Of a stretch of 58,050 bases of DNA, positions 34,095 through 55,341 are shown piece after piece. The notes under the pieces are model-generated. The model ran no database searches and was not told the origin of the DNA. It saw only the letters and a program-made list of their open reading frames with translations. This DNA is from Halodesulfurarchaeum sp. (lineage in GTDB: Archaea; Halobacteriota; Halobacteria; Halobacteriales; Halobacteriaceae), in the NCBI GenBank assembly GCA_042216015.1, contig JBDGUI010000026.1, positions 1 to 58,050 on the forward strand, given 5' to 3'. The translations under genes were made by a program, and so were the position numbers. Within the stretch, counting starts at the first letter, position 1. Each line of letters opens with the position of its first letter.

Positions 34095-34279
34095 GTGTGT
34101 TATCGTCACCCAACCGTTGGTTGTGGGTCCGATACGCACTAACGATGCCACTCGGGGTTTATGAAATTATTTATTCCTTTTTCGTCATGATCGAACGCCG
34201 ATGTCGAAGAGCACACGCTTTCCAGGGGTTTTAGAACTGATAGATCGGGATAAAGCTGGCGTCGGCGCCAAATATTGCG

Positions 34280-34954
34280 TCACTCGGCGAGCAGATCGAT
34301 CGCCTTCTCCACGGCCGCGTCGGCGTTGTCGGCGTAGCCGTCCGCCCCGATCTCGTCGCGCCACTCCTCGGAGGTCGGTGCGCCACCGACCATGACCTTG
34401 ACCTGATCGCGGACGCCCTCCTCCTCGAGCAGTTCGATGACCTCCTCCTGGTGGTCCATCGTCATGGTCATGAGGGCGGACATGCCGAGGATGTCGGGGT
34501 CCTCGTCCTTGACGGCCTGGACGAAGTCCTCGTTGGGAATCTCGACGCCCAGGTCGACGACGTCGAAGCCGTTGGCCTTCAGCATCGTGATCAAAATGTT
34601 CTTCCCGATGTTGTGGATGTCCTCGTTGACGGTGCCGAGGATGACCTTCCCGGCCGTGTCCTCGTCCCCGAGGTCCATCTCGTCCAAAAGCGGCTCGACG
34701 AGTTCGACGCCGGCCCGCATACAGTCAGCGGACATGGCCAGTTCGGGCAGGAAGACCTCGCCCCTTCCGAACTTGTCACCGACGGTCCGGACCCCCTCGG
34801 TCAGTCCCTCCTGGAGGATGATGAGCGGGCTAATGCCCTTGTCGATGGCCTCCTGGGTGAGTTCGGCCGTTTTGTCCTCCTCGAGGTCGATGATCGCCTG
34901 CTGGATGTCCTCGATGATGGGGTCGAGGTCGTCGGCTGAGTCCTCGTCTGTCAT
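34280..34954 (-). CDS. Methyltransferase cognate corrinoid protein (MttC/MtgC-like)
   Basis: Cap domain VGDKFGRGEVFLPEL; B12-binding DIHNIGKNI (DxHxxG), DLG, GMSALMT, VMVGGAP, IGADGY. Confidence 0.93.
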   Translation of the reverse strand: MTDEDSADDLDPIIEDIQQAIIDLEEDKTAELTQEAIDKGISPLIILQEGLTEGVRTVGDKFGRGEVFLPELAMSADCMRAGVELVEPLLDEMDLGDEDTAGKVILGTVNEDIHNIGKNILITMLKANGFDVVDLGVEIPNEDFVQAVKDEDPDILGMSALMTMTMDHQEEVIELLEEEGVRDQVKVMVGGAPTSEEWRDEIGADGYADNADAAVEKAIDLLAE

Positions 34955-35319
34955 GTGAATCCCTATCCCAATAGGTCGCTGTTGCAAGAATAAAGGTTTT
35001 GGAAACCCGGTCTACCCGTTCGATAGTTGACTCGTTTGCCCCCGCTCCCGTCGTGTGGTTTTCTCGAAAATCGATCGCCCTCGGGCTATACAATCAGACC
35101 TTCATTAAGTAAACTAAAATTGGAACTGCTCGTCCGACAGTATCGGCGTCCCATCCGACAAACTCCCCCTCCCTCGGTTTCCCGTCCCGACAATCGCTTC
35201 TCTTTGCTGGATCTCCGGATCGAACAGGTGAACTCGGCGCTCGTCAATCGCTTTGCTCGGTGTGACGGGTCCGGCTCGCAGAATCTCTCTCGCTCGTGCT
35301 CTCTCACCGTCGCGGGAGT

Positions 35320-37089: not shown

Positions 37090-37561
37090 GAACACTCGGT
37101 AGTGGATACGGGTTGAGAAGTCCACCGGTTTCGGCGAGTACCCGAGCTACGACAGTCGTCCCGTCTTTTCCCTCCACCCGGTCGGTACTGACGGGGTGTC
37201 AGGCTCATCGCTTCGAAGACCTCCAATTGTGCCGGACGAACCATTCTTCATGCGTGACACTTTTACCGTCGACCGTCGCCGGTTCCCGGTGTCCCACGAT
37301 GGTCGTCACCCATGAGTTTCCGAATACACTACGTGATTCTGTCAGGTCTGTGCCGCCACCCTCTCCCACTTTTCCATAACGTGAAATGTCATCCACCATT
37401 TGATGGCACGACGCTTTTATACATTGTGTATCACCAACTTCGTTAGTTATATGTGCAAAACCGGCTAGACAAATTGATGTGGGGCCGGTTCACATCCTGC
37501 GACGATCGGAAGGATCGTCGCCTCATGGCGATCGCACGTGGACAGTCCCGAGGTACAATAA

Positions 37562-40102
37562 ATGAGTTCGAACACACTACCCGACAGCGCCGGTACAGTA
37601 ATTATCGGCGCCGGCATCGTGGGGAACAGTCTCGCATATCATCTCGCAGATCAGGGTCGAGAGGACATTTTGCTCGTGGACAAGGGCCCGCTGCCCGACC
37701 CGGGTGGATCGACCGGTCACGCATCGAACTTCCTGATGCCGGTCGAGCATTCAAAGGAGATGACTGAGCTCACCCAGGACGCCATCGAGCAGTACAAGGA
37801 GGCCGGCGTCTTCACGAAGGCCGGTGGGCTCGAGGTCGCCCGGACCGAGGAACAGATGGAGGAGAACAAGCGCCGGGTTCAGTCCGCGAAGGCCTACGGG
37901 GCCAACGCCAAACTCATCGACGCCGATGAGGTCAAAGAGCTCGTCCCGTACATCAACGAGGACATCATCAAGGGCGCCATGTACGCGCCCGACGCCGGTG
38001 TCTGTGACTCCCTCCAGTTCGGTGAGATCTGCCGCGAGCGCGCGAAGGACATGGGCGCACTGACGGTCTCGCCGAACACGGAGGTCACCGACATCCACAC
38101 CGAGTGGGACACCGTCACCGAGATCGAGACCGACCGTGGTAACGTGAAGGTCGAGGACGAACTCGTCATTGCCGCCGGTATCTGGAGCCCGAAACTGGCC
38201 GAGATGGCGGGCACCCGCATTCCGCTCACCCCGGCGGTCCACCAGATGATCAGCGTCGGCCCCATCGAGCAGTTCGAGGAGCGGGGCGTCGAGGGCATTG
38301 AAGACCCGATCGTCCGTGACATGGACCACCGGATGTACGAACGCCAGCACGGCAGCGAGATCGAGGTCGGCTCCTATTCGCATCGACCGATCCTGTGGGA
38401 CGTCGAGGATATCCCGTCCATCGACGAGGCGCCGCTCTCTCCGACCCAGCCGCCGCTCACCGACGACGCCTTCGAGGAGTCGATGGAGCACGCTCTCGAG
38501 ATCATGCCGGAGATCCTGGACGACCCCAACGCGGGGATCCGCCACTCCATCGACGGCCTGCTCTCTCTGACTGCCGACGGCGGCCCGGTCGTGGGTCCGG
38601 TCAAGGACCTCGACAACCTGTGGTCCGTCGCGGCCATCTGGATCAAGGAGGCACCAGCCATCGCGAAGGAGGTCGCAAAGTGGATGACCCAGGGCTACGG
38701 TGCCATCGAGACGGACCTCGAGGGCATCAACATCGCCCGCTACGACGAGTACGGTCGCGCCGAGGACTACATCGACGCCCGCTCGAGGGAGGGCTTCCGC
38801 AAGATCTACGGTACAGTACACCCCTCCGAGCAGTGGCAGAGTGCCCGTCCACTCCGCACGACGGGCTTCCACGACCGCCTCGAGGAGCACGACGCCGAAT
38901 TCTGGGAGTCCGCCGGCTGGGAACGGCCGCGCTGGTTCCGGGAGAACGCGGACCTCCTTCAGACGTATCAGCAGACCATCAACGAGTTTTCCCGACCCAA
39001 CGAGTGGGACCGTCGCTGGTGGTCGCCGATCATCCTGGCCGAGCACCTGCACATGCGGGATAACGTCGGTCTGATCGGGGACATGGGCTTTGGCATCTAC
39101 GAACTCCAGGGGCCAGACGCCCTCGACATGGCGGAGAAACTCACCGTCGGCCGGATGGACGTCGACGTGGGCGATCTCGTCTACACGCCGGTCCTCGACG
39201 AGGAAGCTGGCTTCCGCGCAGACCTCACCGTCGTCCGTCTCGGCGAGGATCACTTCCGCTTCATCACCGGTGGCGGAGACGCCGGTCACGACAAGCAGTG
39301 GATCCGACAGCACATGGAGGGCGACATGGAGGTCGAGCTCGTCAGCAAGAGCTCCGCCCTCGGGACGATGGGCGTCTGGGGTCCGAATGCCCGGAAGGTC
39401 ATGCAGCAGATCACCGTGGAGGACATGTCCGATGAGGCCTTCCCCGCCTACACGGCAAAGGAGGTCCACATCGGCGACGTCGAGGCCTTCGCGATGCGCC
39501 TCTCCTACGTCGGTGAACTCGGCTGGGAGATCTACGCACCGATGGAGCAGACCGGTCGCCTGTGGGACACCATCTACGAGGCCGGCCAGGAGTACGATCT
39601 CCGTCCGGTCGGGACGGGTGTCTACGGTTCGACCGGTCGCATGGAGAAGGGCTACCGCCTACTCGGTGCGGAACTCGAGGCGGATTACAACCCGGTCGAG
39701 GCCGGACTCGACTTCCACGGCGTGAAGGACGCCGACTTCATCGGCAAGGATGCCTACGTCGAGGCCGTCGAGAGCGAGCCAGCGGCCAAGCTCTGCACGC
39801 TCTCCGTGAAAGATCACTCCCCGAACGGTGGCGAGGAACGCTACCCGCTCGGCGGCGAGCCGGTCAAGGACCTCGACGGGAACGTCCTGATCGACGACGA
39901 GGGCCGTCGCTCGTACGTCACGAGCGCAGCGACCGGGCCGTCCGTCGGCAAGCACCTCCTGATGGCGTACATTCCGACGGACATCGCCGAGGAGGGCAAA
40001 GAGCTGCAGATCGAGTACTTCGGCGAGGACTACCCGGTCGAGATCGAAGTCGTCGGTGCCCGACCGCTGTTCGACCCGAGCAACGAGCGGATCCTGAGCT
40101 AA
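37562..40102 (+). CDS. Dimethylglycine dehydrogenase/oxidase-like flavoprotein with GcvT (THF-binding) domain
   Basis: VIIGAGIVG, GGSTGHAS (flavinylated-His motif), GWERPRWF, RLSYVGELGWEIY, RMEKGYR; followed by etfBA. Confidence 0.88.
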   Translation: MSSNTLPDSAGTVIIGAGIVGNSLAYHLADQGREDILLVDKGPLPDPGGSTGHASNFLMPVEHSKEMTELTQDAIEQYKEAGVFTKAGGLEVARTEEQMEENKRRVQSAKAYGANAKLIDADEVKELVPYINEDIIKGAMYAPDAGVCDSLQFGEICRERAKDMGALTVSPNTEVTDIHTEWDTVTEIETDRGNVKVEDELVIAAGIWSPKLAEMAGTRIPLTPAVHQMISVGPIEQFEERGVEGIEDPIVRDMDHRMYERQHGSEIEVGSYSHRPILWDVEDIPSIDEAPLSPTQPPLTDDAFEESMEHALEIMPEILDDPNAGIRHSIDGLLSLTADGGPVVGPVKDLDNLWSVAAIWIKEAPAIAKEVAKWMTQGYGAIETDLEGINIARYDEYGRAEDYIDARSREGFRKIYGTVHPSEQWQSARPLRTTGFHDRLEEHDAEFWESAGWERPRWFRENADLLQTYQQTINEFSRPNEWDRRWWSPIILAEHLHMRDNVGLIGDMGFGIYELQGPDALDMAEKLTVGRMDVDVGDLVYTPVLDEEAGFRADLTVVRLGEDHFRFITGGGDAGHDKQWIRQHMEGDMEVELVSKSSALGTMGVWGPNARKVMQQITVEDMSDEAFPAYTAKEVHIGDVEAFAMRLSYVGELGWEIYAPMEQTGRLWDTIYEAGQEYDLRPVGTGVYGSTGRMEKGYRLLGAELEADYNPVEAGLDFHGVKDADFIGKDAYVEAVESEPAAKLCTLSVKDHSPNGGEERYPLGGEPVKDLDGNVLIDDEGRRSYVTSAATGPSVGKHLLMAYIPTDIAEEGKELQIEYFGEDYPVEIEVVGARPLFDPSNERILS

Positions 40103-40181: not shown

Positions 40182-40931
40182 ATGGAAACACTAGCCTGTA
40201 TCAAACGCGTTGCGGACACCGGGGCAGAGATCGTCCTGACCGACGACAAGCAGTCGGTCGACGCCTCCGCCGTGGGCTACACGATGGGCCCACACGAGGA
40301 ATGTGCGATCGAGGAGGCGGTCCAGACCGTCGAGGAGGAGGGCGGCACGTCGACGGTACTGAGTCTCGGCCCCGAGGACGTGGAGGACCAGATTTACGAA
40401 GGAATCGGCCGCGGTGCCGACGAGGGGATCATTCTCGAGACCGACGGCGGGGAGTGGGGCCCCGAATCCACGGCCACCGCCATCGCCGACGCCGTCGAGG
40501 ATCGAGAATTCGATCTCCTCTTCTTCGGCAACGAGTCGGGTGACAATGCGAACTACCAGGTCGGGATTCGCGTCGCCCACCAGCTCGGCCTGCCGGTCGT
40601 GACCGGAATCAAGGACTTCGAGGTGGACGGGGAGACGGCCATCGCCAAACGCGACGTCCCCGGCGGCTCGGAGGTCTTCGAGGTCGACATCCCCGCCGTC
40701 ATCACCGTCAAGGAGGGCCTGAACACGCCGCGCTACCCGTCGATGCGCAGTCGAATGCAGGCCAAGAAGACCGAACTCGAGGTCATCGAACCGAAAGAAA
40801 CCGAGGATGGCCTGCAGATGCAGGAACTCGAAACGCCCGAGGCGGAGGACGAAGAGGCAGAAGTCCTCGGCGAAGGGCCCGAGGCTGTGGACCGTGCCGT
40901 CGAGGTTCTCGAGGAACTGGAGGTGCTCTAG
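40182..40931 (+). CDS. etfB: Electron transfer flavoprotein beta subunit
   Basis: CIKRV, AIEEAV, RGADEG, G..S.D...QVG, NTPRYPS. Confidence 0.92.
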   Translation: METLACIKRVADTGAEIVLTDDKQSVDASAVGYTMGPHEECAIEEAVQTVEEEGGTSTVLSLGPEDVEDQIYEGIGRGADEGIILETDGGEWGPESTATAIADAVEDREFDLLFFGNESGDNANYQVGIRVAHQLGLPVVTGIKDFEVDGETAIAKRDVPGGSEVFEVDIPAVITVKEGLNTPRYPSMRSRMQAKKTELEVIEPKETEDGLQMQELETPEAEDEEAEVLGEGPEAVDRAVEVLEELEVL

Positions 40932-40932
40932 G

Positions 40933-41901
40933 ATGGTGCTGACACTCATCGAGCACGCAGACGGAGAAATCGAGGAGACCTCTCTCGAGATGCTGACCCT
41001 TGCCCGGGACATCGCCGAACAGGTCGATGAGGACGTAGCCGCGGCGATGTTCGGCGGTTCGGACCTCGCCGCGGACCTGGGCGAGTACGGGGTCGACACC
41101 GCGTACGTCTGTGAGGGCGACCTCGCGGAGACGTATGCACCGGAGGCCCGTGCGGAGGCACTCGGCGTCCTGATCGACGACCTGGACCCCGCAGCATTGG
41201 TGGGCGGTGGGACCGAGACCGCAAACGAGGTCTTTGCCCACCTCAGCGCGAAGCAGGACCTCGCGATGTCGGCGAACACGCTCGAGATCGAGGCCGACGG
41301 TGAAACCTGGGAACTCACCCGCCAGCGGTGGGGCGGCAGTTTGCTCGAACATTCGACGATGTCCGGAGAGGCGAAAGTCTTCACGACGCCGGAACACGAA
41401 CTTCCGATCGAGACCGTCGGCGAGGGCGAGGCCACCGTCGAGACGGTCAGTCCGAACGTCGAGGACGCCTCCTTCGAGGTCAAAGTCGACCGAATCGAGG
41501 AATCAGACGTGGAGGGTGTCCCGCTTCCGGAGGCCCGGATCGTCGTCGGTGGCGGCCGCGGGGTCGGCAGCGCCGAGGACTTCGACCAGCTTGAGGAGCT
41601 TGCCGACCTCTTCGATGGCGCGACCGTCGGGGCAAGCCGCATTGCTGTCGACGAGGGCTGGCGGCCCCACGACGACCAGATCGGCCAGACCGGTCAGAAG
41701 ATCTCCCCCGATCTGTACATCGCCGCCGGCATCAGCGGTGCCGTCCAACACTGGGTCGGTGCGAAGGGCGCGGAGAACGTCCTGGCCATCAATATCGACC
41801 CGGAGGCGGCGATCATGTACAAGGGCGATTACGCCATCGTGGGCGACCTCCACGAGGTCGTGCCCGAACTGATCGAGGCCATCAGGGCCGCGAAGGAGTA
41901 G
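40933..41901 (+). CDS. etfA: Electron transfer flavoprotein alpha subunit
   Basis: EARIVVGGGRG, VGASR, QIGQTG, LYIAAGISGAVQH, AINIDPEA. Confidence 0.93.
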   Translation: MVLTLIEHADGEIEETSLEMLTLARDIAEQVDEDVAAAMFGGSDLAADLGEYGVDTAYVCEGDLAETYAPEARAEALGVLIDDLDPAALVGGGTETANEVFAHLSAKQDLAMSANTLEIEADGETWELTRQRWGGSLLEHSTMSGEAKVFTTPEHELPIETVGEGEATVETVSPNVEDASFEVKVDRIEESDVEGVPLPEARIVVGGGRGVGSAEDFDQLEELADLFDGATVGASRIAVDEGWRPHDDQIGQTGQKISPDLYIAAGISGAVQHWVGAKGAENVLAINIDPEAAIMYKGDYAIVGDLHEVVPELIEAIRAAKE

Positions 41902-42087: not shown

Positions 42088-42963
42088 CTACGGCAGCTCG
42101 ACGTCGACGTCTTCCTGTAATGCTGCGGCCTTTGCCGTGTTGTAGAGGAGCATCGTGATCGTCATCGGGCCGACACCACCCGGAACCGGGCTAATGGCGT
42201 CAACGACATCCTTGGCGGACTCGAAGTCCACGTCACCGACCAGTTCGTCGTCGACGCGGTTCGTGCCGACGTCGATGACCGTCTGGCCCTCCGAGAGCAT
42301 CGACCCGTCGATCATCTCGGGGACGCCAGCAGCCGCGATAACGATGTCGGCGTTCCTGGTCTTCTCGGCCAGGTTCTCCGTCCGGGAGTGACAGACGGTG
42401 ACCGTCGCATTGCCGGTATCGGTCTTCTGCATGAGCAGGTTCGCGACCGGCTTGCCGACGATGTTCGACCGACCGACGACGGTAACGTCTTTGCCTTCGG
42501 TATCGACGCCAGCGTCTTCGATCATCTTGAGAACGCCGTGTGGCGTGGCGGGCTTGAAGCGGGCGTTACCCGAGACCATCAACCCCACGTTCGTCGGGTG
42601 GAAACCGTCGACGTCCTTGATCGGATCGATCTGCTGGAGGACCTGGCTCTCGTCGACCTGATCGGGAACGGGCAACTGGACGAGGATGCCGTGAACCTCG
42701 GGATTCGCGTTCAGTTCGTCGATGGTGTCATAGAGTTCCTCGGCTGGCGCATCGGGATCGATTTCGACGTGGAAACTCTCCATGCCGATCTCCTCACAGG
42801 CCTTCTGTTTCATCGAGACGTAGGTCTCACTCGCCGGATCGTCGCTCATCAGGACGGTGGCGAGACCGGGAGTGACGCCCTCGTCTTCGAGGGTCTGGAC
42901 GCTGTCTTCGAGGTCTGTCCGAATCGAGTCCGCGAGTTCGTTGCCGTCGATAATGTAGGTCAT
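42088..42963 (-). CDS. folD: Methylene-THF dehydrogenase/cyclohydrolase
   Basis: PGLATVL, YVSMK, GILVQLP, KDVDGFHP, GRSNIVGKP, VTVCHS, PVPGGVGPMT. Confidence 0.96.
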   Translation of the reverse strand: MTYIIDGNELADSIRTDLEDSVQTLEDEGVTPGLATVLMSDDPASETYVSMKQKACEEIGMESFHVEIDPDAPAEELYDTIDELNANPEVHGILVQLPVPDQVDESQVLQQIDPIKDVDGFHPTNVGLMVSGNARFKPATPHGVLKMIEDAGVDTEGKDVTVVGRSNIVGKPVANLLMQKTDTGNATVTVCHSRTENLAEKTRNADIVIAAAGVPEMIDGSMLSEGQTVIDVGTNRVDDELVGDVDFESAKDVVDAISPVPGGVGPMTITMLLYNTAKAAALQEDVDVELP

Positions 42964-43115
42964 TGGTCGATCGAACACGGAGTCCGTGCCGTCTGTATAC
43001 TACCCGGGAGGCCACCTTGAGGTTTTCTAGACCGACTCGTCGCCCGCTTCTAAATACCCCTCAAACTTCGGCTTGGCAAAGAGTGAAACCCCCCACCCGG
43101 CTAGGGTGGGCACAC

Positions 43116-43952
43116 ATGACACGGGAGGGCGTCCGCGAACTGCTGGCCGATCCGCACTACGAACTGCTCCCCTTCTCGGGGCTGTACGAGGAGGCCGAAC
43201 AGCTTCCGGAGGGGTCGACGGTCGCGTTGACCGCCTCGCCGGAGAAGGGCGTCGAGGAGACGGTCGACCGGTCGATCGAACTCCGGGAGATGGGATTCGA
43301 GGTCTCGACACACGTGGCCGCCCGCGCCGTTCGCAGTCGGGACCACCTCGCGGAGCTCACCGACCGACTGAAGGAGGCTGGAATCGAGGATATCTTCGTC
43401 CCGGGTGGGGACAACGAGGAGCCCGAGGGGCCCTATGACTCCTCGTATGCCCTGCTCACCGATCTCGAGGAGGAGATCGGGACCGAGTTCGAACGAGTGG
43501 GCATCACCGGCTATCCGGAAGGTCACCAGTTCATCGAGGACGACACGCTCCGAGAGCACCTCGTGAAGAAGGAGCCATACGCCGATTACATCGTCACCCA
43601 GATGACCTTCGACCCCGACGCGGTCGCGGCATGGGCGAGCGAGATCCGCGAGGAGGCGGAGGTTAGCCTCCCCATCATCGTCGGCGTGCCGGGGGTCATG
43701 AAGTACCAGCGCCTGTTGAGCATCTCCCGGGAGATCGGGGTCGGGGATTCGCTGTCTTATCTCCGCAAGACGACCGGGATCATCGACTTCCTCAAGCAGT
43801 TCCTCGGGTCCCGTGGCCAGTACGCTCCGGACGATTTCATCGAGGGGATCGGGAAGCACTATGCGAGTGGCGACTACGGCATCGAGGCCGTGCATCTCTA
43901 CACCTTCAACCAGGCAGGCGACACCGAGGCCTGGCGTCAGCAGTACGTCTGA
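43116..43952 (+). CDS. metF: Methylenetetrahydrofolate reductase
   Basis: YELLP, HVAAR, FVPGGD, GYPEGH, IVTQMTFD, HLYTFN. Confidence 0.87.
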   Translation: MTREGVRELLADPHYELLPFSGLYEEAEQLPEGSTVALTASPEKGVEETVDRSIELREMGFEVSTHVAARAVRSRDHLAELTDRLKEAGIEDIFVPGGDNEEPEGPYDSSYALLTDLEEEIGTEFERVGITGYPEGHQFIEDDTLREHLVKKEPYADYIVTQMTFDPDAVAAWASEIREEAEVSLPIIVGVPGVMKYQRLLSISREIGVGDSLSYLRKTTGIIDFLKQFLGSRGQYAPDDFIEGIGKHYASGDYGIEAVHLYTFNQAGDTEAWRQQYV

Positions 43953-44055: not shown

Positions 44056-44964
44056 ATGTTCACCTTCGAGGCGGAGCAAGACGTATACGACGTCAGTGGC
44101 ACGAAAATCGGTGGGCAACCCGGGGAGACGCCCACGCTCATGGTCGGCAGCATCTTCTACAAGGGGGACTCCGTGCAGGAGGACCCGAAGACGGGCGAGT
44201 TCGACGAGGAAGCCGCCCTGGAGGCCATCGAAACGGTCGAAGAGGTCTCCGAGCAGACCGGCAACCCGCCCGCCTTCGACACGATCGGTGACTCTCCCGA
44301 GGCCCTCAAAAAGCACATCGAGTTCATGGCCGACGCCACGGACGCCCCGATCTTCATGGACGGACCGACCCCGTCGATCCGATCCGAGGCCGCGAAGTTC
44401 GCCGGCGAGATCGGCATCGAGGACCAGATCATCTACAACTCCATCGAGTCGAGCACGAAGGAGGTCGACAAGGAGATCGAGGCGATCCAGGAGTCCGGAA
44501 TCAACTCGGCGGTCCTGCTCTCGATCGACACGACGGACATGTCCATCGACGGTCGACGGGGCGCCCTCGACGCCAACCTCGAGGTCGCCGAGGAGGCCGG
44601 CATCGAGCAGCCGATCGTCGACCCCGGCATCATCGACATCCCGGACTCGGGGTACGTCGCGAAGATCATCCACGAGCTGAAAGACGAGTACGGCATCCCG
44701 ATGGGCTGTGCACCGCACAACGAGGTCATCCAGTGGGAGATGAACGACCCGCTCACGGAAAACTCCCGACAGCTCCGCCAGGCCGTCGCGAACTCGGTCA
44801 TCTCGATCCTCGGCGCGGACTTCAACATCTATGGCCCGGTCCACGGCGCTCCCGAGATGTACGAGGTCATGTCCACCGCCGACGCCTACGTCGCCTACGG
44901 CGCCCAGATGGGCGAAGGCCGGCGAGCAGATCCGGACCACCCGCTCTTCAAGATCTTCCGGTAA
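44056..44964 (+). CDS. MtrH-family methyltransferase, probably methyl-corrinoid:THF methyltransferase (MtgA-like)
   Basis: MFTFEAEQ...IGGQPGETPT.MVGSIFY, IYNSI, GCAPHN, GADF..YGP; no other mtr genes in the window. Confidence 0.88.
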   Translation: MFTFEAEQDVYDVSGTKIGGQPGETPTLMVGSIFYKGDSVQEDPKTGEFDEEAALEAIETVEEVSEQTGNPPAFDTIGDSPEALKKHIEFMADATDAPIFMDGPTPSIRSEAAKFAGEIGIEDQIIYNSIESSTKEVDKEIEAIQESGINSAVLLSIDTTDMSIDGRRGALDANLEVAEEAGIEQPIVDPGIIDIPDSGYVAKIIHELKDEYGIPMGCAPHNEVIQWEMNDPLTENSRQLRQAVANSVISILGADFNIYGPVHGAPEMYEVMSTADAYVAYGAQMGEGRRADPDHPLFKIFR

Positions 44965-45201: not shown

Positions 45202-47154
45202 TCAGTCCTGGTTTTCCTTCGCCTCGAGCCTCGCGGCCTCGAGCGCTCGACTCCGTGTTACCCGCTCTTTAACGTGGGGATAGAGGTCGAAGTCCTGGTG
45301 GGGGAGATACATCGACTCCATGAAGTTCTCCTGGAAGACGTCGGTGCCCGCGATCTCGAAGTACTCGACCTCCTCGACGATCCGTTCGGCCTCTGCTCGG
45401 CGCTCCCTGTCGAGGAGGGCGAGTTTCGCCCCCACGCCGGCCGCGTTCCCGAGTGAGACCACGTCGTCGGGGTCGATGTCCGGATACATGCCGATGGTCA
45501 TCGCCGAGATCTTGTCGATGTAGTTGCCAAAGGCCCCGGCCATGAGCACGCGGTCCGGGGTGTCGATGTCGAGTTCGCCCATGAGCACGCGCGTGCCGGC
45601 CTGGATGGCAGCCTTGGCCATCTGGATCGAGCGGATGTCGTTCTGGGTGAGGACGATGTCCTCCGCGAGGGCGGCCTCCGCCTCTGGGGCGACGACGTAC
45701 TCGAGTTCCCCGTCGTCGTTCTCTCGAACCCGTGGATGGTCGAGCACCTCGTCGCGGAACTTCCCGCGCTGGTCGACGATCCCGACCTCGAACAGCTGGG
45801 CCAGCGCGTCGATCACGCCCGAACCCGTGATGCCGTTCGGCGGCTCGTCCTCGATGGTTTCGTACTCGGGGAGCAGGGTCTCCGGATCGATTCGCAGCGT
45901 CTCGATCGCCCCGGCCTGTGCGCGGACGCCGTATCGCAGTTCGGCTCCCTCGAGTGCCGGGCCCGCCGGGGCGGAGGTGACGAGCATCTTCTCCTCGTTG
46001 CCCACCGAGATCTCGCCGTTCGTCCCGATGTCGATGCAGACGGTCGTTTCGGGTTCCTTGTAGTGGCCGGCGACGAGGAGTACCGACACCTTGTCCGGTC
46101 CAACCCACCCGCCGCTCACGGGCAACCAGTAGACGTAGCCCGACTCGTTGATGTCGATGCCGAGTTCGCGAGCCTTGACCTGGATCGGGGCCTCCCTGGC
46201 GGCCACGTAGGGGGAGCCGGCGACGTAGGCCGGGTCGATGCCCAAAAAGAGGTGATGCATCGCCGTGTTGCCCACGAAGACGCTCTCGTAGATGTGTCTC
46301 CGGTCGATGCCCGCCTCGGTGACGACCTCCTCGATGGTCTCGTTGATCCCCTTCCGGATCTCCTCCTTGAGTTCCTCCCGACCGTCCTCGTTCCGGCGGG
46401 TGTACCGCATCCGGGTCATGATGTCCCCGCCCTGCTTGGTCTGCGGATTGAGTCGGGAGCTGATCGCCTCGGTTTCCCCGCTCTTCAGGTTCACCAGGTA
46501 GGTCGCGACGGTCGTCGTCCCGACGTCGATGGCCAGGCCGTAGGCGGTCTCCTCGAGCCCCGGCTCGACGTCGATGAGTTCCCGATCGTCATAGACGGTG
46601 GCGGTCGCCTCGAGGCGGTCCGCGACCTCCCGTTCGCGCACCCGGTTCGGGAGCTCCCGCTGGGCCTCGTAATCCACGCTCTCGAGTTCGAGGTCGTAGG
46701 TCTCCTCGAGGGCCTCCCCGATCCGCTCGAAGTCCGCGAGGTTGTCCGAGAGCGAGGGAAGCGGCAGCTCCACGTGGTACTTCTTGATGACCGGGTCGAT
46801 GGTGTACTCGAGTTCGTGGCCCTCCGTGAGCACGATCCCGGCGGTCTTCTGGGAGTCCGGGGGGACGGTCACGTCGACGGAGCCGGACTCGGCCATGGTC
46901 GCCCGACAGGTCAGTCGATAGCCGTTCTCGAGCTGTTCCGTGGAGAGTGTCTGCTCCTCGGCCGTGGTGACCGGGCTGAGGTGTTCCTCGCCGTCGTCGA
47001 TGATCGCCTTGCAGGTCCCACACCTGCCGTTGCCGGCACAGAGCCCCTCGATGCTCACCCCCGCGTCCGCCGCGGCGTCGAGAAGGGTCGTCTCCGCGTC
47101 GACGTCTATCGTCTTCTTCCAGGGGTAGAACGTAACCTGCGACTCCTCGGACAT
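45202..47154 (-). CDS. ASKHA-domain ATP-dependent reductive activator of corrinoid enzymes (RACE type) with N-terminal [2Fe-2S] domain
   Basis: CAGNGRCGTC...RLTC ferredoxin; AIDVGTTT, NPQ...GDIMTR, GNTAMHHL, DIGTNGEI, AGPALEG, AGAFG, GNAAG. Confidence 0.92.
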   Translation of the reverse strand: MSEESQVTFYPWKKTIDVDAETTLLDAAADAGVSIEGLCAGNGRCGTCKAIIDDGEEHLSPVTTAEEQTLSTEQLENGYRLTCRATMAESGSVDVTVPPDSQKTAGIVLTEGHELEYTIDPVIKKYHVELPLPSLSDNLADFERIGEALEETYDLELESVDYEAQRELPNRVREREVADRLEATATVYDDRELIDVEPGLEETAYGLAIDVGTTTVATYLVNLKSGETEAISSRLNPQTKQGGDIMTRMRYTRRNEDGREELKEEIRKGINETIEEVVTEAGIDRRHIYESVFVGNTAMHHLFLGIDPAYVAGSPYVAAREAPIQVKARELGIDINESGYVYWLPVSGGWVGPDKVSVLLVAGHYKEPETTVCIDIGTNGEISVGNEEKMLVTSAPAGPALEGAELRYGVRAQAGAIETLRIDPETLLPEYETIEDEPPNGITGSGVIDALAQLFEVGIVDQRGKFRDEVLDHPRVRENDDGELEYVVAPEAEAALAEDIVLTQNDIRSIQMAKAAIQAGTRVLMGELDIDTPDRVLMAGAFGNYIDKISAMTIGMYPDIDPDDVVSLGNAAGVGAKLALLDRERRAEAERIVEEVEYFEIAGTDVFQENFMESMYLPHQDFDLYPHVKERVTRSRALEAARLEAKENQD

Positions 47155-47310
47155 GTGTATGCCCGTCGTACACGATGACCATACAAAAGGTGATTGAAGG
47201 GAGTCGTTTTGGCCCGTACCAGGACGTTCCCAGACCCGGCTCGAGAACGTCCGCTCGCCGTCGAGTGCCCGATATGAACGTTGAAGGGGGATGCCAGTCG
47301 ATCCTTGGCC

Positions 47311-48267: not shown

Positions 48268-48321
48268 TCGGCACGGATCGACTGTCGGGGGGCTTATTGG
48301 CTCCCACGCGGTAGCAGGCCC

Positions 48322-49050: not shown

Positions 49051-49051
49051 T

Positions 49052-49448: not shown

Positions 49449-51521
49449 TCAGTCCGCACTCGATTCGGTGACGTCGACGGAGATGGTGGCGGCGGCCACC
49501 TTGAACTCGGGGATTTTCGCCACCGGGTCCATGGCATCGTTCGTCACCCGGTTCGTGGGCGAATCCTCGAAGTGGGGGGTCGTCCACACGACTCCCCGCT
49601 TCGTGGCCTCGGTCACGTTCGCTCGAACGTCGATCTCCCCGCGTCGGGTTCGCAACTGGACCATGTCGTCGTCCTCGATCCCCCGCTCCTCGGCGTCTTC
49701 CGGATGAATGTCGATGAAGTTGTGATCGGTCTTCCGCATGAGGTTCTCCGAGCGCCGGCTCATCTCTCCGGTGTTGTAGTGTTCCTCGATGCGGCCGGTC
49801 GTGAGTACGAGCGGGTACTCCTCGTCCTCGACCTCGGCCGGTGGCTGATGGCTCACACCGCGGATCTTCCCGAGCCCGTCCTCGGTCGGGAACTCCTCTT
49901 TGTGGAGGTACTGAGTCCCCTCGTCGTCCTCGCTCTCGACGGGCCACTGCATGCCCGTCTCGCCGATTCGGTCGTAGGTGAGCCCGGCGTAGATCGGGGC
50001 GACCTCGCGGAGTTCCTCGAAGACCTCCTCGGGGTCCCCGTAGGCAAAGCCCTCGCCGAACAGACGCGTACCGATCTCGCTCAGGATGTCGAAGTCGTGG
50101 CGGGTATTTCCCGGGACGTCGACGGCGGGACGCATGCGCTGGACGCGGCGGTCGGTGTTCGTCACCGTACCGCCACGTTCGACCCACGAGGTCGCCGGCA
50201 GGACGACGTCGGCGAGCTTCGCGGTCTCGGTCATGAAGATGTCCTGGGCGACCATGAACTCGAGTTCCCCCAGATTCTCCCGGACCTCGTCGGAGTTCGG
50301 CTCGCTCAGGACGGGATTCTCGCCCATGACGTAGAGCGACTGGATCTCCTCGCCGGCCGCGTTCGTCACCTCGAGACTCGTCAGGCCGTTCTCAGCCGGC
50401 GGCTCGAAGCCCCAGACCTCGGCAACGGCGGCTCGATCCTCGGGATCCTCCACCTCGCGGTAGCCCGGCAGGACGTTGGGAAGCGCGCCAACGTCGCTCG
50501 TCCCCTGGACGTTGTTCTGCCCGCGAAGCGGGTTGATCCCGGTTCCCGGCTTTCCCAGGTTCCCGGTCACGAGCGCGAGATTGATGAGGTTCTGGACGTT
50601 GTCGGTGCCACATGACTTCTGGCTCATTCCCATGCCCGTGAAGATGGCCCCGTTCTCGGCCTCGGCGAAGGTCCGGGCGGCCTCCTTGACCGTCTCGGCA
50701 TCGACTCCGGCGGTTTCGGCGGCCTCTTCGACGTCGAAGTCCGCGAGTTCGGTCTCCAGGGACTCGAATCCCCTCGTCCGCTCGGCGATGAACTCCTCGT
50801 CGTAGAGGCCTTCCTCGAGGATCGTCTTCAGGACGATGTTCAAGAGCGGGATGTCCGTGCCCGGCTTGACCTGCAGGTGGACGTCCGCGGACTTCGTGGT
50901 CTTGTTCTCGTGGGGGTCGACCTGGATGACCGTCGTCCCCTCGTTTGCGGCCTGCTTGAAGTACTTCGAGTGGCCGATGACGTGCTGCTCGGCCGGATTT
51001 GCCCCCTGGATCCAGTAGACGTCACTTGCCTCTTTCAGATCGGCCATACTGTTGGTCATCGCACCCGTGCCCAGACTGTCACGCAGCGCAGCCACGGTCG
51101 AGGCATGACAGAGCCGGGTGCAGTTATCGATATTGTTCGACCCGTATCGCCGGGCCAGCTTCTGGAGGAGGTAGTTCTCCTCGTTCATCACCTGCGAGGA
51201 GGCGAAAAAGCCCGCGGCTTCCGGTCCGTACTCCTCGCGAATCGACTCGAGTCCCTCGACGACGCGGGAGATGGCCTCCTCCCAGGTCGCCTCTCGAAAC
51301 TCACCGTCTTCCTTGATGAGGGGTTCTGTCAGGCGGTCCTCGTGGTCGACGTGCTGGACGGCGGCACTTCCCTTCACACAGAGTGCGCCCTCGTTGACCG
51401 GGGCGTCGAACCACGGTTTGAAGTTCACCGATCCGGGCTCCTCGCCCGGCTCGAGTTTGAGCCCACAGCCGACCCCACAGTACGGGCAGATCGTCTTGAC
51501 CGAATCGTCCTCAGTGCTCAT
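49449..51521 (-). CDS. fdhF: Formate dehydrogenase alpha subunit (FdhF/FdhA-like, Cys type), copy 1
   Basis: CPYCGVGC...CVKG, NEENY, IDNCTRLCHAST, LRGQNNVQG, GTVTNTDRRVQ, DPVAKIPEFK; no Tat leader; alternative ATG at 51533. Confidence 0.92.
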   Translation of the reverse strand: MSTEDDSVKTICPYCGVGCGLKLEPGEEPGSVNFKPWFDAPVNEGALCVKGSAAVQHVDHEDRLTEPLIKEDGEFREATWEEAISRVVEGLESIREEYGPEAAGFFASSQVMNEENYLLQKLARRYGSNNIDNCTRLCHASTVAALRDSLGTGAMTNSMADLKEASDVYWIQGANPAEQHVIGHSKYFKQAANEGTTVIQVDPHENKTTKSADVHLQVKPGTDIPLLNIVLKTILEEGLYDEEFIAERTRGFESLETELADFDVEEAAETAGVDAETVKEAARTFAEAENGAIFTGMGMSQKSCGTDNVQNLINLALVTGNLGKPGTGINPLRGQNNVQGTSDVGALPNVLPGYREVEDPEDRAAVAEVWGFEPPAENGLTSLEVTNAAGEEIQSLYVMGENPVLSEPNSDEVRENLGELEFMVAQDIFMTETAKLADVVLPATSWVERGGTVTNTDRRVQRMRPAVDVPGNTRHDFDILSEIGTRLFGEGFAYGDPEEVFEELREVAPIYAGLTYDRIGETGMQWPVESEDDEGTQYLHKEEFPTEDGLGKIRGVSHQPPAEVEDEEYPLVLTTGRIEEHYNTGEMSRRSENLMRKTDHNFIDIHPEDAEERGIEDDDMVQLRTRRGEIDVRANVTEATKRGVVWTTPHFEDSPTNRVTNDAMDPVAKIPEFKVAAATISVDVTESSAD

Positions 51522-51692
51522 GGTAATTGGCATCCCGGAGACCCGGGTTCGGTTGGAATTGGGGACAGATGATTAATAAGGTTCGGCAGCGGGGGGATGT
51601 CGCCGGCTCTCTCAGGTTCGGTTCGTCCAGGCAAATCCCGATCCCGCTCTCAAATACGGAAAACGGGGAATTCGTGGCGAATGTGGGCCGGT

Positions 51693-53393
51693 TTAGAAGA
51701 GCCCGGAGATCGTGCCGTCGGCGTCGATGTCCATGTCGGCGGCCGCCGGGCGGGCGGGGAGGCCGGGCATGGTCATGACGTCACCGGTGAGCGCGACGAC
51801 GAACCCGGCACCTGCGGATGGGTAGAGTTCGCGGACGTCGAGCTCCCAGTCGGTCGGGACGCCCTTCTTGGAGGCGTCGTCGCTGAAGGAGTGGAAGGTC
51901 TTCGAGAGGACGACCGGCACGTCGTCCAGGCCCATCTCCTTGAGCTGGGCGATGTCCTCCTCGGCGGAGCCAACGTAGTTGACCCCGCCGGCGCCGTAGA
52001 TCTTCGTCGCAACCGTCTCGATTTTCTCCTTGAGCGAGGCATCGAGGTCGTAGAGCGGGGCCCAGTTGCGGTCTTCGTTCTCGACCTTGTCGACGATTTT
52101 CTCCGCGAGTTCAGCACCGCCCGCGCCGCCCTCGCCGAAGACGTTGGACTCGGCGGCCGGGACGTCCATCTCCTCCTCGTAGTGCTCGATGATCGCGTCG
52201 ATCTCGGCCTGGGTGTCCTGCGGGAACCGGTTGATGGCCACGATGACGGGCACGCCGAACTGCTGCAGATTGCGAACGTGCTTGTCGAGATTCGGGAACC
52301 CGGCCTTGACGGCCTCGACGTCCTCATTCTCGAGCTCGTCGGCGTCGAAGGGCCACATGTCCTTGCCGTGGTACTTGAGTGCCCGGGCGGAGGCCACGAG
52401 CACCATCGCGTCGGGGTGGATGTCACTGAGCTGGCTCACGACGTTGTTGAACTTCTCGCCGCCGAGGTCCGAGCCGAAGCCGGCCTCGGTGATGAGGTAA
52501 TCGCCCATCTTCAGGCCGACCTTGTCCGCGATGAGGGAATTGGTGCCGTGGGCGATGTTCGCGAACGGACCGCCGTGGACCAGGGCCGGGGTCCCTTCGA
52601 TGGTCTGGACGATGTTCGGGCGAAGCGCGTCACGGAGCAGGATCGTGGCCGCGCCGGCGGCCTCGATGTCGCCCGCGGTGACGGGGTCGCCGTCCTCGTC
52701 GTAGGCGACGATGATACGACTGATGCGCTCTTTGAGGTCTCCGAGGTCCTCGGCGAGGCAGAGAATGGCCATCAGCTCGGAGGCGGCCGTCAGGACGTGT
52801 TCGTCCATCCGGGTGACGCCAGCCGAGTCGCCGGCGCCGACGATGGTCTGGCGCAGGGCACGGTCGTTGTGGTCGACGGCCCGTGGCCACGCGACACTCG
52901 TCGAGTCGATTTCAAGTTCGTTGCCCTTCGAGATGTGGGCGTCGAGCATCGCGGAAATCAGGTTGTGAGCCGCCGTGAGCGCGTGGATGTCCCCCGTGAA
53001 GTGGAGGTTGATGTCCTCCATCGGGAGCACCTGCGACCAGCCTCCGCCGGCCGCGCCGCCCTTGATCCCGAAGACTGGGCCCAGAGAGGGCTCGCGGATG
53101 GCGATCATCGCGTCCTCGCCGATGTGGTTGAACGCCTGGCTGAGTCCGACGGTGGTAACCGTCTTCCCCTCGCCCATCGGTGTCGGCGTCATGCCGGTCA
53201 CGAGTACGAGATTGCCGTCCTCCTCGTCGCTCTCGAGGAGGTCGTCGATGGCCTCCTCGCTGATCTTGGCCTTGTAGTCTCCGTAGAGTTCGAGGTCATC
53301 CTTCTCGAGTCCGAAGGGTTCGGTGACCTCCCAGATCGGTTTCTCGTCTACGGATTGTGCGATCTCGTAGTCAGTCTCTGGTTCCGAGGACAT
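51693..53393 (-). CDS. fhs: Formate--tetrahydrofolate ligase
   Basis: TPTPMGEGKT, REPSLGP.FGIKGGAAGGG, NLHFTGD, VHGGPFANIAHG, TEAGFG.DLG.EKF, MTMPGL. Confidence 0.97.
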   Translation of the reverse strand: MSSEPETDYEIAQSVDEKPIWEVTEPFGLEKDDLELYGDYKAKISEEAIDDLLESDEEDGNLVLVTGMTPTPMGEGKTVTTVGLSQAFNHIGEDAMIAIREPSLGPVFGIKGGAAGGGWSQVLPMEDINLHFTGDIHALTAAHNLISAMLDAHISKGNELEIDSTSVAWPRAVDHNDRALRQTIVGAGDSAGVTRMDEHVLTAASELMAILCLAEDLGDLKERISRIIVAYDEDGDPVTAGDIEAAGAATILLRDALRPNIVQTIEGTPALVHGGPFANIAHGTNSLIADKVGLKMGDYLITEAGFGSDLGGEKFNNVVSQLSDIHPDAMVLVASARALKYHGKDMWPFDADELENEDVEAVKAGFPNLDKHVRNLQQFGVPVIVAINRFPQDTQAEIDAIIEHYEEEMDVPAAESNVFGEGGAGGAELAEKIVDKVENEDRNWAPLYDLDASLKEKIETVATKIYGAGGVNYVGSAEEDIAQLKEMGLDDVPVVLSKTFHSFSDDASKKGVPTDWELDVRELYPSAGAGFVVALTGDVMTMPGLPARPAAADMDIDADGTISGLF

Positions 53394-55260: not shown

Positions 55261-55341
55261 AGCGTACAACACGACTATCGATGGTTCGCCAGTTAAGTAT
55301 ACCTGATGCTGCCCGGATTTCGCCGGTACCAACAACCCCCG

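Follow-up and report, generated by a model that had tools for sequence, protein, structure and literature searches.

The closest described counterpart of the locus analysed here is the MtgB/MtgC/MtgA system of Desulfitobacterium hafniense (MtgA, 6SJ8; MtgB, 2QNE/9YCE), in which four roles are filled: MT1 is an MttB-family enzyme with a glycine-betaine motif, MT2 has the MtrH fold, and a corrinoid protein and an activase complete the set. The pterin-binding and catalytic residues of MtgA are Ser32, Asp75, Asp102, Asn129, Asp194, and Asn227, and the way in which it holds the THF tail has been described as unique (PMC7154762). Two further groups belong to the same family. One is canonical MtrH, which shares the Pfam family and the TIM-barrel fold and is part of the membrane-bound MtrA-H methyl-H4MPT:CoM methyltransferase; the other comprises archaeal stand-alone homologues from MSBL1, Hadarchaeota, Archaeoglobi, Hydrothermarchaeota, and Bathyarchaeia, encoded beside corrinoid proteins and RACo.

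We have analysed a stretch of 58,050 nucleotides from Halodesulfurarchaeum sp. (the window in what follows), which appears to encode the same four roles. Based on gene context and active-site conservation, we propose, with a probability of roughly 0.7, that the MtrH-fold protein encoded at 44056-44964 acts as MT2 in a cobalamin-dependent demethylation system of four parts, by which methyl groups of glycine betaine would be passed to THF and oxidised to CO2. Compared with the D. hafniense system, the host is an archaeon and the genes are dispersed in a larger C1-oxidation island with a DMGDH-like enzyme, ETF, Fhs, and formate dehydrogenases. The features of the island, with the evidence for each assignment, are the following:

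29986..32388, + strand: FolC-FolP fusion, folate biosynthesis (Pfam Mur_ligase_M, Mur_ligase_C, Pterin_bind)
32454..34151, - strand: BCCT betaine/choline/carnitine transporter (Pfam BCCT, E 1.3e-152)
34280..34987, - strand: corrinoid (B12) carrier protein, MtgC-like (Pfam B12-binding and B12-binding_2; NCBIfam TIGR02370, 228.8 bits, passing the cut-off of 215.3)
35320..37125, - strand: aldehyde:ferredoxin oxidoreductase (Pfam AFOR_N, AFOR_C)
37562..40102, + strand: DAO-FAO_M-GCV_T flavoprotein of the dimethylglycine/sarcosine dehydrogenase type, with folate-binding domain (Pfam DAO, FAO_M, GCV_T, GCV_T_C)
40182..41901, + strand: ETF beta and alpha subunits, ORFs 40182-40931 and 40807-41901, alpha start uncertain (Pfam ETF, ETF_alpha)
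42088..42978, - strand: FolD, methylene-THF dehydrogenase/cyclohydrolase (Pfam THF_DHG_CYH and C-terminal domain; NCBIfam NF010764, 508 bits, passing the cut-off of 477)
42963..43952, + strand: divergent methylene-THF reductase, MTHFR-like, on the same strand as MT2 and 103 bp upstream of it (Pfam MTHFR, E 2.7e-13)
44056..44964, + strand: MT2, stand-alone MtrH-family methylcorrinoid:pterin methyltransferase, MtgA-like (Pfam PF02007, 6SJ8 match, active-site residues)
45202..47154, - strand: RACo-type reductive activase of the corrinoid protein, 2Fe-2S plus ASKHA ATPase (Pfam Fer2, RACo_linker, Raco_middle, RACo_C_ter)
49449..51533, - strand: formate dehydrogenase alpha subunit (NCBIfam TIGR01591, 776 bits, cut-off 666)
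51693..53393, - strand: Fhs, formate-THF ligase (Pfam FTHFS, E 1.5e-243)
53797..55260, - strand: MT1, non-pyrrolysine MttB-family methyltransferase, MtgB-like, glycine betaine:corrinoid (Pfam MTTB, E 2.2e-142, no in-frame stop)
55823..57868, - strand: second formate dehydrogenase alpha subunit (NCBIfam TIGR01591, 711 bits, cut-off 666)

The MtrH homologue and its active site

An initial sequence-only reading had assigned the 44056-44964 ORF to the MtrH family, and this assignment is borne out. The ORF is complete from its ATG to the stop codon (302 aa), and its product matches Pfam MtrH PF02007 over profile positions 2-291 of 299 (E 1.9e-71, 241.1 bits against a gathering score of 22.8). The closest solved structure is that of D. 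hafniense MtgA (6sj8; E 6.2e-64, 219.6 bits), ahead of the solved MtrH of M. mazei (152.3 bits), and because the match to a solved structure is full length at E 6e-64 the fold can be considered settled. The base composition around the gene shows no sharp anomaly, and the haloarchaeal protein is strongly acidic. MT2 scores below the cut-offs of the NCBIfam models for MtgA (NF047990; 249.1 bits, cut-off 550), for mtrH (TIGR01114; 216.2 bits, cut-off 271.4, the tree representatives in the canonical part reaching 436-558), and for the 'MtrH family protein' (NF002142; 270.2 bits, cut-off 287, with relatives from MSBL1, Hadarchaeota, and Archaeoglobi at 298-309). MT2 is a member of the MtrH superfamily, but it is not an MtgA equivalog.

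All six pterin-binding and catalytic residues of MtgA are kept in MT2, as S32, D75, D102, N128, D189, and N222, and the complete set is found in 15/15 haloarchaeal rows of the alignment. Canonical MtrH shares D102, N128, D189, and N222, but it differs at alignment positions 32, 75, and 194, where it has T (8/10), Q (10/10), and P (9/10) and MT2 has S, D, and D like all stand-alone rows. The archaeal stand-alone homologues have S32, D75, D194, and H221 in common with the haloarchaeal protein. The residues with which D. hafniense MtgA grips the THF tail are a different matter, as only one of seven is kept (Tyr35, which is Y35) by a hand mapping in which the alpha7' alignment is uncertain; the replacements, mapped by hand from the structure-match alignment, are H38D, Y230I, R236N, F243S, F251A, and W272E. 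Since the tail mode of MtgA has been described as unique (PMC7154762), these residues are unable to tell C1 carriers apart. At positions 38, 225, and 230 the haloarchaeal rows have D, I, and N, and their archaeal stand-alone relatives mostly H, D, and R.

Partner proteins and the proposed route

The MTHFR-like (metF), FolD, and RACo genes are indeed the neighbours of MT2, as had been noted from the sequence, but the description of the gene as an orphan does not hold, for the window also carries MT1, the corrinoid protein, the RACo activase, and a BCCT transporter. These components are scattered over ~23 kb (32.4-55.3 kb) on both strands, and they are neither adjacent nor part of one operon. 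The gene order of the entire island is preserved at loci L005, L009, L010, and L020, and cobalamin genes too are encoded within the window. At 12 of 16 haloarchaeal loci and at none of 64 others, an MTHFR-like gene is found within ~1.1 kb of the MtrH homologue.

The MT1 ORF extends over 53797-55335 on the reverse strand, and its homologues start at ORF residue 26 or 27; because residue 26 is a Met, where homologues begin, we have placed the 5' end at 55260. The closest solved structure is the glycine betaine methyltransferase MtgB of D. hafniense (9yce/2qne; E 4.6e-118), and the glycine-betaine motif is represented by Y130, R343, H379, and Y387. In this way, all four contact residues are kept or changed as in the MtgB variant F356Y, which acts like the wild type (paper on the glycine betaine methyltransferase), and the aromatic pair of the site is reported not to be conserved in MtcB, MtpB, MthB, and MtyB and to be lacking in the enzymes for carnitine, proline betaine, and butyrobetaine. 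These residues, together with a DMGDH-like neighbour that is consistent with dimethylglycine as the product, make it unlikely that MT1 is not specific for glycine betaine and takes another methyl donor, for example a quaternary amine such as choline, proline betaine, or carnitine. In favour of another donor, MT1 reaches none of the specific NCBIfam cut-offs, BCCT transporters take up several compounds of this kind, and the genome has a second, divergent MTTB paralogue. Among NCBIfam models, the BCCT protein of the window scores best against that for glycine betaine uptake BCCT transporters (441 bits, under the cut-off of 650).

The corrinoid protein has a DxHxxG motif at residue 123. The RACo gene starts at the ATG at 47154, the sole start codon shortly before the Fer2 domain, and four Cys lie within the first 110 aa; a 1376-aa ORF reaching 49332 was rejected as a high-GC artefact.

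According to our proposal, glycine betaine would be imported by the BCCT transporter and the MtgB-like MttB enzyme would transfer one of its N-methyl groups to the Co(I) corrinoid protein, after which the MtrH-fold enzyme would take the methyl group off methyl-Co(III) and place it on N5 of tetrahydrofolate. RACo would re-reduce the corrinoid after accidental oxidation. Methyl-THF could then be oxidised through the MTHFR-like enzyme, FolD, and Fhs, with a gain of ATP, and by the formate dehydrogenases to CO2, the electrons probably being used in the sulfur, thiosulfate, or DMSO respiration of the organism. The DMGDH-like flavoprotein and ETF could carry out the further breakdown of dimethylglycine.

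The orthologous island of Halodesulfurarchaeum formicicum HTSR1 has been published and its products were found in the proteome, with no discussion of the methyl-transfer system (PMC5437934). In the three growth conditions, spectral counts were 23/37/26 for the 'MtrH' HTSR_1745, 49/82/39 for the MttB protein HTSR_1738, 29/23/23 for the corrinoid protein HTSR_1752, and 20/31/25 for HTSR_1744, which is RACo by position (Table S11, PMC5437934). The word 'betaine' has no occurrence in the main text of that paper, and a literature search, mostly outside subscription journals, returned nothing on betaine demethylation by corrinoid-dependent enzymes in haloarchaea.

The same biochemistry could also be anabolic, feeding methyl groups of glycine betaine or of another donor to the folate pool or to homocysteine, for methionine and other C1 products, and not serving as a respiratory electron donor. 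In fact, the THF enzymes of the island were interpreted as a biosynthetic C1 supply (PMC5437934), and a study on marine bacteria is reported to link glycine betaine demethylation to methionine synthesis (PMC12478193). However, with Fhs, two formate dehydrogenases, and the DMGDH-like enzyme with ETF, the island covers the whole oxidation to CO2, proteins of this route are among the abundant ones in HTSR1 (HTSR_1750 up to 2.5%, Fhs up to 1.5%; PMC5437934), and no methionine synthase gene came up in the Pfam scan of the window (57 larger ORFs). A purely anabolic use seems improbable to us on these grounds. The anabolic and respiratory roles are mutually compatible.

The C1 carrier

The MtrH fold by itself does not fix the C1 carrier, because the closest archaeal relatives adjoin a URO-D-type MT1 and the Bathyarchaeia enzymes have been proposed to act on H4MPT. 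In agreement with what had been noted, other Mtr subunits and H4MPT-pathway families are absent from the 57 larger ORFs (23 + 34) of the window scanned with Pfam. As for an mtr operon elsewhere, MtrA lies upstream in all of ten validated canonical MtrH loci; the genome-wide search, which among the Mtr subunits covered MtrA and MtrE, found neither in the organism's own genome (86.6% complete), and MtrA was found in 0/4 related genomes, each 98-99% complete. The own genome likewise gave no match to Mer, McrA, CdhC, or RFAP synthase. Across five genomes there was no hit to RFAP synthase (TIGR00144), the control being positive in four archaea, and in three Halodesulfurarchaeum genomes, each 98-99% complete, neither MtrA nor RFAP synthase turned up. 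A genome search for mtrA-G, mch, and mer had been suggested as a check; MtrA, MtrE, and Mer were not found, and an Mch homologue is present. Mch is not diagnostic, however, because Haloferax volcanii is also positive.

These data bear on the possibility that the methyl group is passed to a methanopterin-type carrier instead of THF, as has been suggested for the nearest relatives among archaea. The lineages of the nearest non-haloarchaeal relatives of MT2 are thought to use H4MPT, which counts for such an acceptor, as does H221, which agrees with canonical MtrH and is replaced by Ser in 6/7 bacterial rows. The Bathyarchaeia 'MtgA' has been proposed to methylate H4MPT (PMC10989822), and the Mch homologue could be taken in the same sense were it not shared with Haloferax volcanii. 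Against this, besides the missing RFAP synthase, Mer, MtrA, and MtrE in the genomes searched, MT2 is flanked by MTHFR-like, FolD, and Fhs genes with the FolC-FolP fusion within the window, and six other loci of the archaeal stand-alone clade (L033, L038, L043, L057, L058, and L065) are also flanked by Fhs and FolD. We consider a methanopterin acceptor very improbable, tetrahydrofolate being the carrier that we favour.

Lineage, distribution, and significance

In the sequence-only reading, the protein was taken as a methyl-corrinoid:THF transferase repurposed from the Mtr complex, with an origin either from bacteria or from methanogen ancestors. The transferase part of that reading is backed by gene context and active-site conservation and may well be correct; the orphan status and the repurposing are not sustained, and AU tests rejected both origins. 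The maximum-likelihood tree of the MtrH family had 87 rows, labelled by genomic context and NCBIfam models, and it separates canonical from stand-alone proteins with a support of 100/99. The haloarchaeal clade is nested within the archaeal stand-alone homologues from MSBL1, Hadarchaeota, and Archaeoglobi (100/100 and 100/95), with which it forms a clade of 26 rows (100/100), and its stem branch is long (0.67). Grouping of the haloarchaeal rows with bacterial MtgA, for which six Eubacteriaceae proteins above the NCBIfam MtgA cut-off (597-610 bits vs 550) stood in place of D. hafniense MtgA, was rejected with p 0.0012. By sequence too, the nearest relatives are the archaeal stand-alone homologues (44-50% identity). 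Sequence and tree point to MT2 being part of a separate, mostly archaeal stand-alone lineage, from whose other members it differs at positions 38, 225, and 230, in its long stem and strong acidity, in its MTHFR-like neighbour, and in its partner, since at the two nearest named archaeal loci (L027 and L040; Archaeoglobi and Hydrothermarchaeota) the MT2 is paired with a URO-D-family MT1 and in haloarchaea with MttB.

Haloarchaea branch among methanogens, MtrH has been inferred to be ancient in Archaea (PMC13473441), and the near relatives include Archaeoglobi, which belong to the same phylum; MT2 might be what vertical inheritance from a methanogenic ancestor of haloarchaea has left of the methanogen Mtr complex. 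This is already contradicted by the tree, as a topology that joins the haloarchaeal rows to the canonical and MtrA-paired rows is worse by 144 lnL (p-AU 4e-49). Furthermore, identity to the ten validated canonical MtrH proteins is just 28-34%, the gene occurs in only 5/401 sampled Halobacteria, and one copy (L014) lies on a 359-kb plasmid, which leaves a vertical relic as the least credible of the explanations considered. All five positive Halobacteria carry MTTB as well. Horizontal transfer probably brought the MT2 gene, of stand-alone descent, into a few haloarchaeal lineages, where it was joined to an MtgB-type MT1.

A wider picture, which we put forward only tentatively, is that sulfur-respiring haloarchaea are anaerobic methylotrophs that could strip glycine betaine of its methyl groups and oxidise these completely through a chimeric pathway. 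Their MT2 would be archaeal, with nearest relatives that go with a URO-D-type MT1 and probably H4MPT, gained horizontally from MSBL1-like or Archaeoglobi-like brine anaerobes, re-tooled to tetrahydrofolate (as positions 38, 225, and 230 and the long stem branch might reflect), and coupled to an MtgB-type MT1, the DMGDH-like enzyme with ETF, and a reverse methyl branch.

Glycine betaine, the dominant osmolyte of hypersaline ecosystems, represents a large store of carbon and nitrogen in brines, and fermenting bacteria and methylotrophic methanogens are usually credited with its anaerobic turnover at salt saturation. As H. formicicum is cultured and expresses the whole island, our hypothesis is directly testable. 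If true, the betaine-to-folate corrinoid route would be a new catabolic mode for Haloarchaea, and the sulfur-respiring members would be competitors for methyl groups that are otherwise turned into methane. MT2 would then be a natural case of the MtrH fold using folate in an archaeon. For the evolution of haloarchaea, the gene is no leftover of methanogenesis but part of a patchy module that was probably acquired horizontally.

A probable folate-based C1-oxidation island with an MtgABC-like system

The MtrH homologue is encoded by a complete ORF, from ATG to stop, whose 302-aa product matches the Pfam MtrH family (PF02007) with E 1.9e-71 over profile positions 2-291 of 299. A genome-wide search of its own genome (1.68 Mb, 51 contigs, 86.6% complete, the window being contig C8) gave this gene as the only MtrH match. 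We scanned 57 of the larger ORFs of the window with Pfam and 13 ORFs with NCBIfam, and the genes around it are as follows (Pfam assignments unless stated otherwise):

44056-44964 (+), MtrH homologue (MT2)
42963-43952 (+), MTHFR-like (metF), same strand as MT2 and 103 bp upstream
42088-42978 (-), FolD
45202-47154 (-), RACo, the corrinoid-protein reductive activase
48322-49050 (+), YqeC
53797-55260 (-), MttB-family methyltransferase, non-pyrrolysine (MT1)
34280-34987 (-), corrinoid protein with a DxHxxG motif
35320-37125, aldehyde:ferredoxin oxidoreductase
21.7-28.4 kb, cobalamin biosynthesis and uptake block
elsewhere in the window: BCCT transporter; formate-THF ligase (Fhs); two formate dehydrogenase alpha proteins, both above the NCBIfam equivalog cut-off; DAO-FAO_M-GCV_T flavoprotein of the dimethylglycine/sarcosine dehydrogenase type, followed by ETF beta and alpha; FolC-FolP fusion

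The neighbours named in the sequence-only reading (metF, FolD and RACo) were thus confirmed, and none of the 57 ORFs encodes a further Mtr subunit. The description of the gene as an orphan did not hold, as the window also carries the MttB homologue, the corrinoid protein, the BCCT transporter and genes for C1 oxidation and cobalamin. The gene is the predicted MT2 of a system resembling MtgABC, the glycine betaine:THF methyltransferase system of Desulfitobacterium hafniense, inside a folate-based C1-oxidation island. Most likely, MT2 would transfer the methyl group carried by the corrinoid protein to THF, yielding methyl-THF, and the methyl donor is probably glycine betaine.

The RACo domains start right after the ATG at 47154 and occupy the C-terminal 650 aa of a 1376-aa ORF, 45202-49332(-). 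We rejected this longer ORF as an over-extension, a high-GC artefact, whose N-terminal part overlaps YqeC and another ORF on the opposite strand. The latter (47175-48314(+), 379 aa) matched no Pfam or NCBIfam family; its position is kept in Halodesulfurarchaeum loci at 38-62% identity, compared to ~80-95% for most neighbours. The window also contains two unrelated genes, at 4595-6070(+) and 10550-12847(-): a chlorite-dismutase-family and ABM fusion, and a NorB-like gene (cytochrome c-like domain and COX1).

In a scan for relatives with one genome per species, 334 were found; the 80 best, which we retained, come from haloarchaea (16), other archaea (57) and bacteria (7). The complete window gene order is kept in four loci (L005, L009, L010 and L020), and at other haloarchaeal loci the MtrH homologue lies beside varying subsets of corrinoid protein, RACo, MttB, MTHFR-like and FolD genes. 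Among these best 80 of 334, an MTHFR-like gene lies at most ~1.1 kb from the MtrH homologue at 12 of the 16 haloarchaeal loci, against 0 of the 64 others. Aldehyde:ferredoxin oxidoreductase genes (~30% identity) also occur near MtrH, RACo, MttB and corrinoid genes in several Bathyarchaeia loci (L029, L030, L032 and L055, at ~10.9-11.0 kb), with weaker cases in L052, L063, L074 and L083; that the association is found again in other phyla hints that the genes are functionally connected, and the oxidoreductase might, for instance, provide the low-potential electrons needed to reactivate the corrinoid.

Pterin site, carrier and methyl donor

Among solved structures, MT2 was matched best by D. hafniense MtgA (E 6.2e-64 over the full length), which acts as methylcorrinoid:THF methyltransferase when glycine betaine is catabolised; the MtrH entry 8z9u and Methanosarcina mazei MtrH (E 2e-43) came next. 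MtgA is reported to bind its pterin through Ser32, Asp75, Asp102, Asn129 and Asp194, with Asn227 at N5, and its D102A variant is inactive (PMC7154762). In the structure-match alignment these residues correspond to S32, D75, D102, N128, D189 and N222 of MT2, all six of which are invariant in our alignments. Canonical MtrH has been reported to differ from MtgA at three sites, with Thr32 in place of Ser, Gln75 in place of Asp and His229 in place of Ser (PMC12774963). In our alignment, S32 and D75 were present in 58/58 named or near stand-alone rows (15 haloarchaeal, 8 near, 28 archaeal and 7 bacterial), whereas the canonical rows, validated by MtrA genes (with F or G) directly upstream, had T at position 32 in 8/10 and Q at position 75 in 10/10. 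Likewise, every stand-alone row has D at position 194, where 9/10 canonical rows have P. H221 of the haloarchaeal MT2 is common to archaeal and canonical rows; 6 of the 7 bacterial rows have S.

Only one of the seven MtgA residues that lock the THF tail is kept in MT2 (mapped by hand), and this tail-binding mode has been described as unique to MtgA (PMC7154762). Because of this, we take fold and pterin site as evidence for a methylcorrinoid:pterin methyltransferase, but not for a particular carrier. At positions 38, 225 and 230 the haloarchaeal rows depart from their nearest relatives, and we can speculate that these changes reflect a carrier switch, salt adaptation, or both. MT2 is predicted to work like MtgA, yet it falls outside the MtgA equivalog family (249 bits, cut-off 550); it also scores below the curated NCBIfam cut-offs for mtrH (216 vs 271) and the MtrH family (270 vs 287).

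No in-frame stop interrupts the MttB homologue, whose top solved relative is D. hafniense MtgB, the glycine betaine methyltransferase (E 4.6e-118). In MtgB the quaternary nitrogen is held by Y97 and F356 and the carboxylate by R312 and H348; the F356Y variant is wild-type-like, and conservation of the aromatic pair does not extend to the carnitine, proline-betaine, butyrobetaine and related enzymes, as reported in PMC13080624 (2026). The contact positions, mapped from the structure-match alignment, are Y130, R343, H379 and Y387 in the window protein, present in 105, 119, 99 and 119, respectively, of 121 aligned MttB homologues. These residues favour glycine betaine as the putative methyl donor of MT1.

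A second, divergent MTTB paralogue lies in the own genome, outside the window (G000:C18:12302-13786, 285 bits vs 475 for the window copy) and is kept across the genus (G004, G010 and G020). Two other haloarchaeal MTTB matches carry one in-frame stop each, G073:C10:279303-280709 (TAG, 430 bits) and G394:C1:693966-695369 (TGA, 376 bits), and could be pseudogenes.

Origin of the haloarchaeal MT2

A full mtr operon elsewhere in the genome would have refuted the sequence-only reading. Neither MtrA nor MtrE, the two Mtr subunits sought genome-wide, was found in the 86.6% complete genome; CdhC, McrA and Mer were not found either, and the controls matched in methanogens. As this genome is incomplete, the key searches were repeated in further genomes: three belong to the genus and are 98-99% complete, one of these being a single contig, and a fourth is that of another haloarchaeon with MtrH. 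MtrA was found in 0/4. RFAP synthase, of H4MPT biosynthesis, was found in 0/5 genomes, own included. An Mch homologue is present in the own genome and in the genus, but it is not diagnostic since the same search matches Haloferax volcanii, which matches RFAP synthase too.

The nearest proteins to MT2 (89-94% identity) include those of Halodesulfurarchaeum sp.; identity falls to 63-85% in other Halobacteriales, 50% in an MSBL1 archaeon and ~44% in Bathyarchaeia. Its strongly acidic composition (D+E 19.5%, K+R 6.3%) is consistent with a native haloarchaeal protein. MT2 is 28-34% identical to the 10 canonical MtrH and to three further copies located in MtrA-MtrH pairs, and 39% to one copy located beside a URO-D gene.

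The final tree (IQ-TREE, LG+C20+F+G4 with PMSF, 87 rows, 308 columns) comprised the window protein, 14/16 haloarchaeal loci (L007 and L008, on short contigs, were omitted), 28/57 other archaeal loci, 7/7 bacterial loci, 8 near relatives (P0069-P0076), 14 context-labelled rows and 15/96 full-length additional representatives. Nine long-branch rows flagged in the earlier quick ML tree were excluded (P0124, P0129, P0131, P0138, P0140, P0144, P0145, P0161 and P0164), the root was assumed rather than inferred, and D. hafniense MtgA itself was not among the rows. Earlier trees (FastTree, 177 rows; quick ML, 98 rows) agree with it. Canonical and paired MtrH were split from all stand-alone forms (support 100/99). 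The haloarchaeal rows fall into a single clade (100/100), whose stem is long (0.67) and whose sister is the MSBL1 protein P0069 (93/83); three further proteins (95/91) follow, and after these a sequence from Hadarchaeota. The enclosing 26-row clade (100/100) includes Archaeoglobi JdFR-42 and a Hydrothermarchaeota sequence, and is nested in a 46-row clade (100/95) whose named rows are all archaeal. The bacterial rows group by themselves (100/96), and this clade represents bona fide MtgA, as 6/7 exceed the NCBIfam equivalog cut-off (597-610 bits).

To the question of a bacterial or methanogen origin, the tree answers with neither bacterial MtgA nor canonical MtrH: in AU tests, grouping the haloarchaea with the bacterial rows was rejected (delta lnL 82.7, p 0.0012), and so was a group of haloarchaea plus canonical and paired MtrH (delta lnL 144, p 4e-49), these groupings having been taken from the earlier hypotheses but delimited after the trees were seen. 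MT2 is not a canonical MtrH and, by its place in the tree, belongs to an archaeal stand-alone lineage.

Two observations concern the relatives. In six Brockarchaeota-type and Nitrososphaerota-labelled loci (L033, L038, L043, L057, L058 and L065) stand-alone MtrH is flanked by Fhs and FolD, with a FolC/FolP-like gene in four of them, so the stand-alone lineage also occurs outside H4MPT contexts. At L027 and L040, the two named loci closest to the haloarchaeal clade, the MtrH homologue is encoded with a corrinoid protein and a methyltransferase of the URO-D family, and the haloarchaeal MT2 thus appears to have been joined to another kind of MT1 than that of its nearest relatives.

Among 401 sampled Halobacteria, the MtrH family was found in five: the own genome, 3/3 others of the genus and one in another family. 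MTTB was found in 12 (11 above cut-off), including all five. In the wider phylum 207/301 genomes have MtrH, and among the 150 matches listed, all outside the genus, scores were 360-510 bits vs 241 for the window protein. On the 358,865-bp plasmid unnamed2 of Halomicrococcus gelatinilyticus (L014), the MtrH homologue occurs with a corrinoid protein, RACo and a distant DMGDH-like gene, and this megaplasmid is a plausible vehicle of spread among haloarchaea. The gene is rare in haloarchaea, has a plasmid copy and is nested among anaerobes of brines and the subsurface, all of which suggests that it was acquired horizontally and is not a relic of methanogenesis; vertical descent, which would imply massive loss, is improbable.

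The orthologous island of Halodesulfurarchaeum formicicum

HTSR_1736 to HTSR_1753 of H. formicicum have the gene order of the window, exactly reversed (PMC5437934). From HTSR_1736 they are annotated there as Fdh, hypothetical, MttB (1738), Fhs (1739), Fdh (1740), 'ferredoxin' (1744, RACo by position), 'tetrahydromethanopterin S-methyltransferase subunit H' (1745), MTHFR (1746), FolD (1747), ETF (1748-1749), 'glycine cleavage T' (1750), AOR (1751), 'corrinoid methyltransferase' (1752) and betaine transporter (1753). By position, HTSR_1743 ('succinylglutamate desuccinylase/aspartoacylase') may correspond to ORF 47175-48314.

Spectral counts of H. formicicum proteins in cells on sulfur / thiosulfate / DMSO (PMC5437934, Table S11)
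HTSR_1745: 23/37/26
HTSR_1738: 49/82/39
HTSR_1752: 29/23/23
HTSR_1744: 20/31/25
HTSR_1750: 95/192/103
HTSR_1739: 64/107/61
Isoleucyl-tRNA synthetase (comparison): 31/28/18

Compared to isoleucyl-tRNA synthetase, these counts suggest that the orthologous system is made at housekeeping-like levels in this relative, the data being those of H. formicicum and not of the genome studied here. The main text of that paper reads the THF enzymes as a biosynthetic route from formate to methyl-THF, and the words betaine, corrinoid and MtrH each have 0 occurrences in it. We found no description in the literature of corrinoid-dependent betaine demethylation in haloarchaea. Sulfur-respiring haloarchaea are thereby predicted to be capable of anaerobic methylotrophy on betaine, and this prediction is testable in an existing culture.
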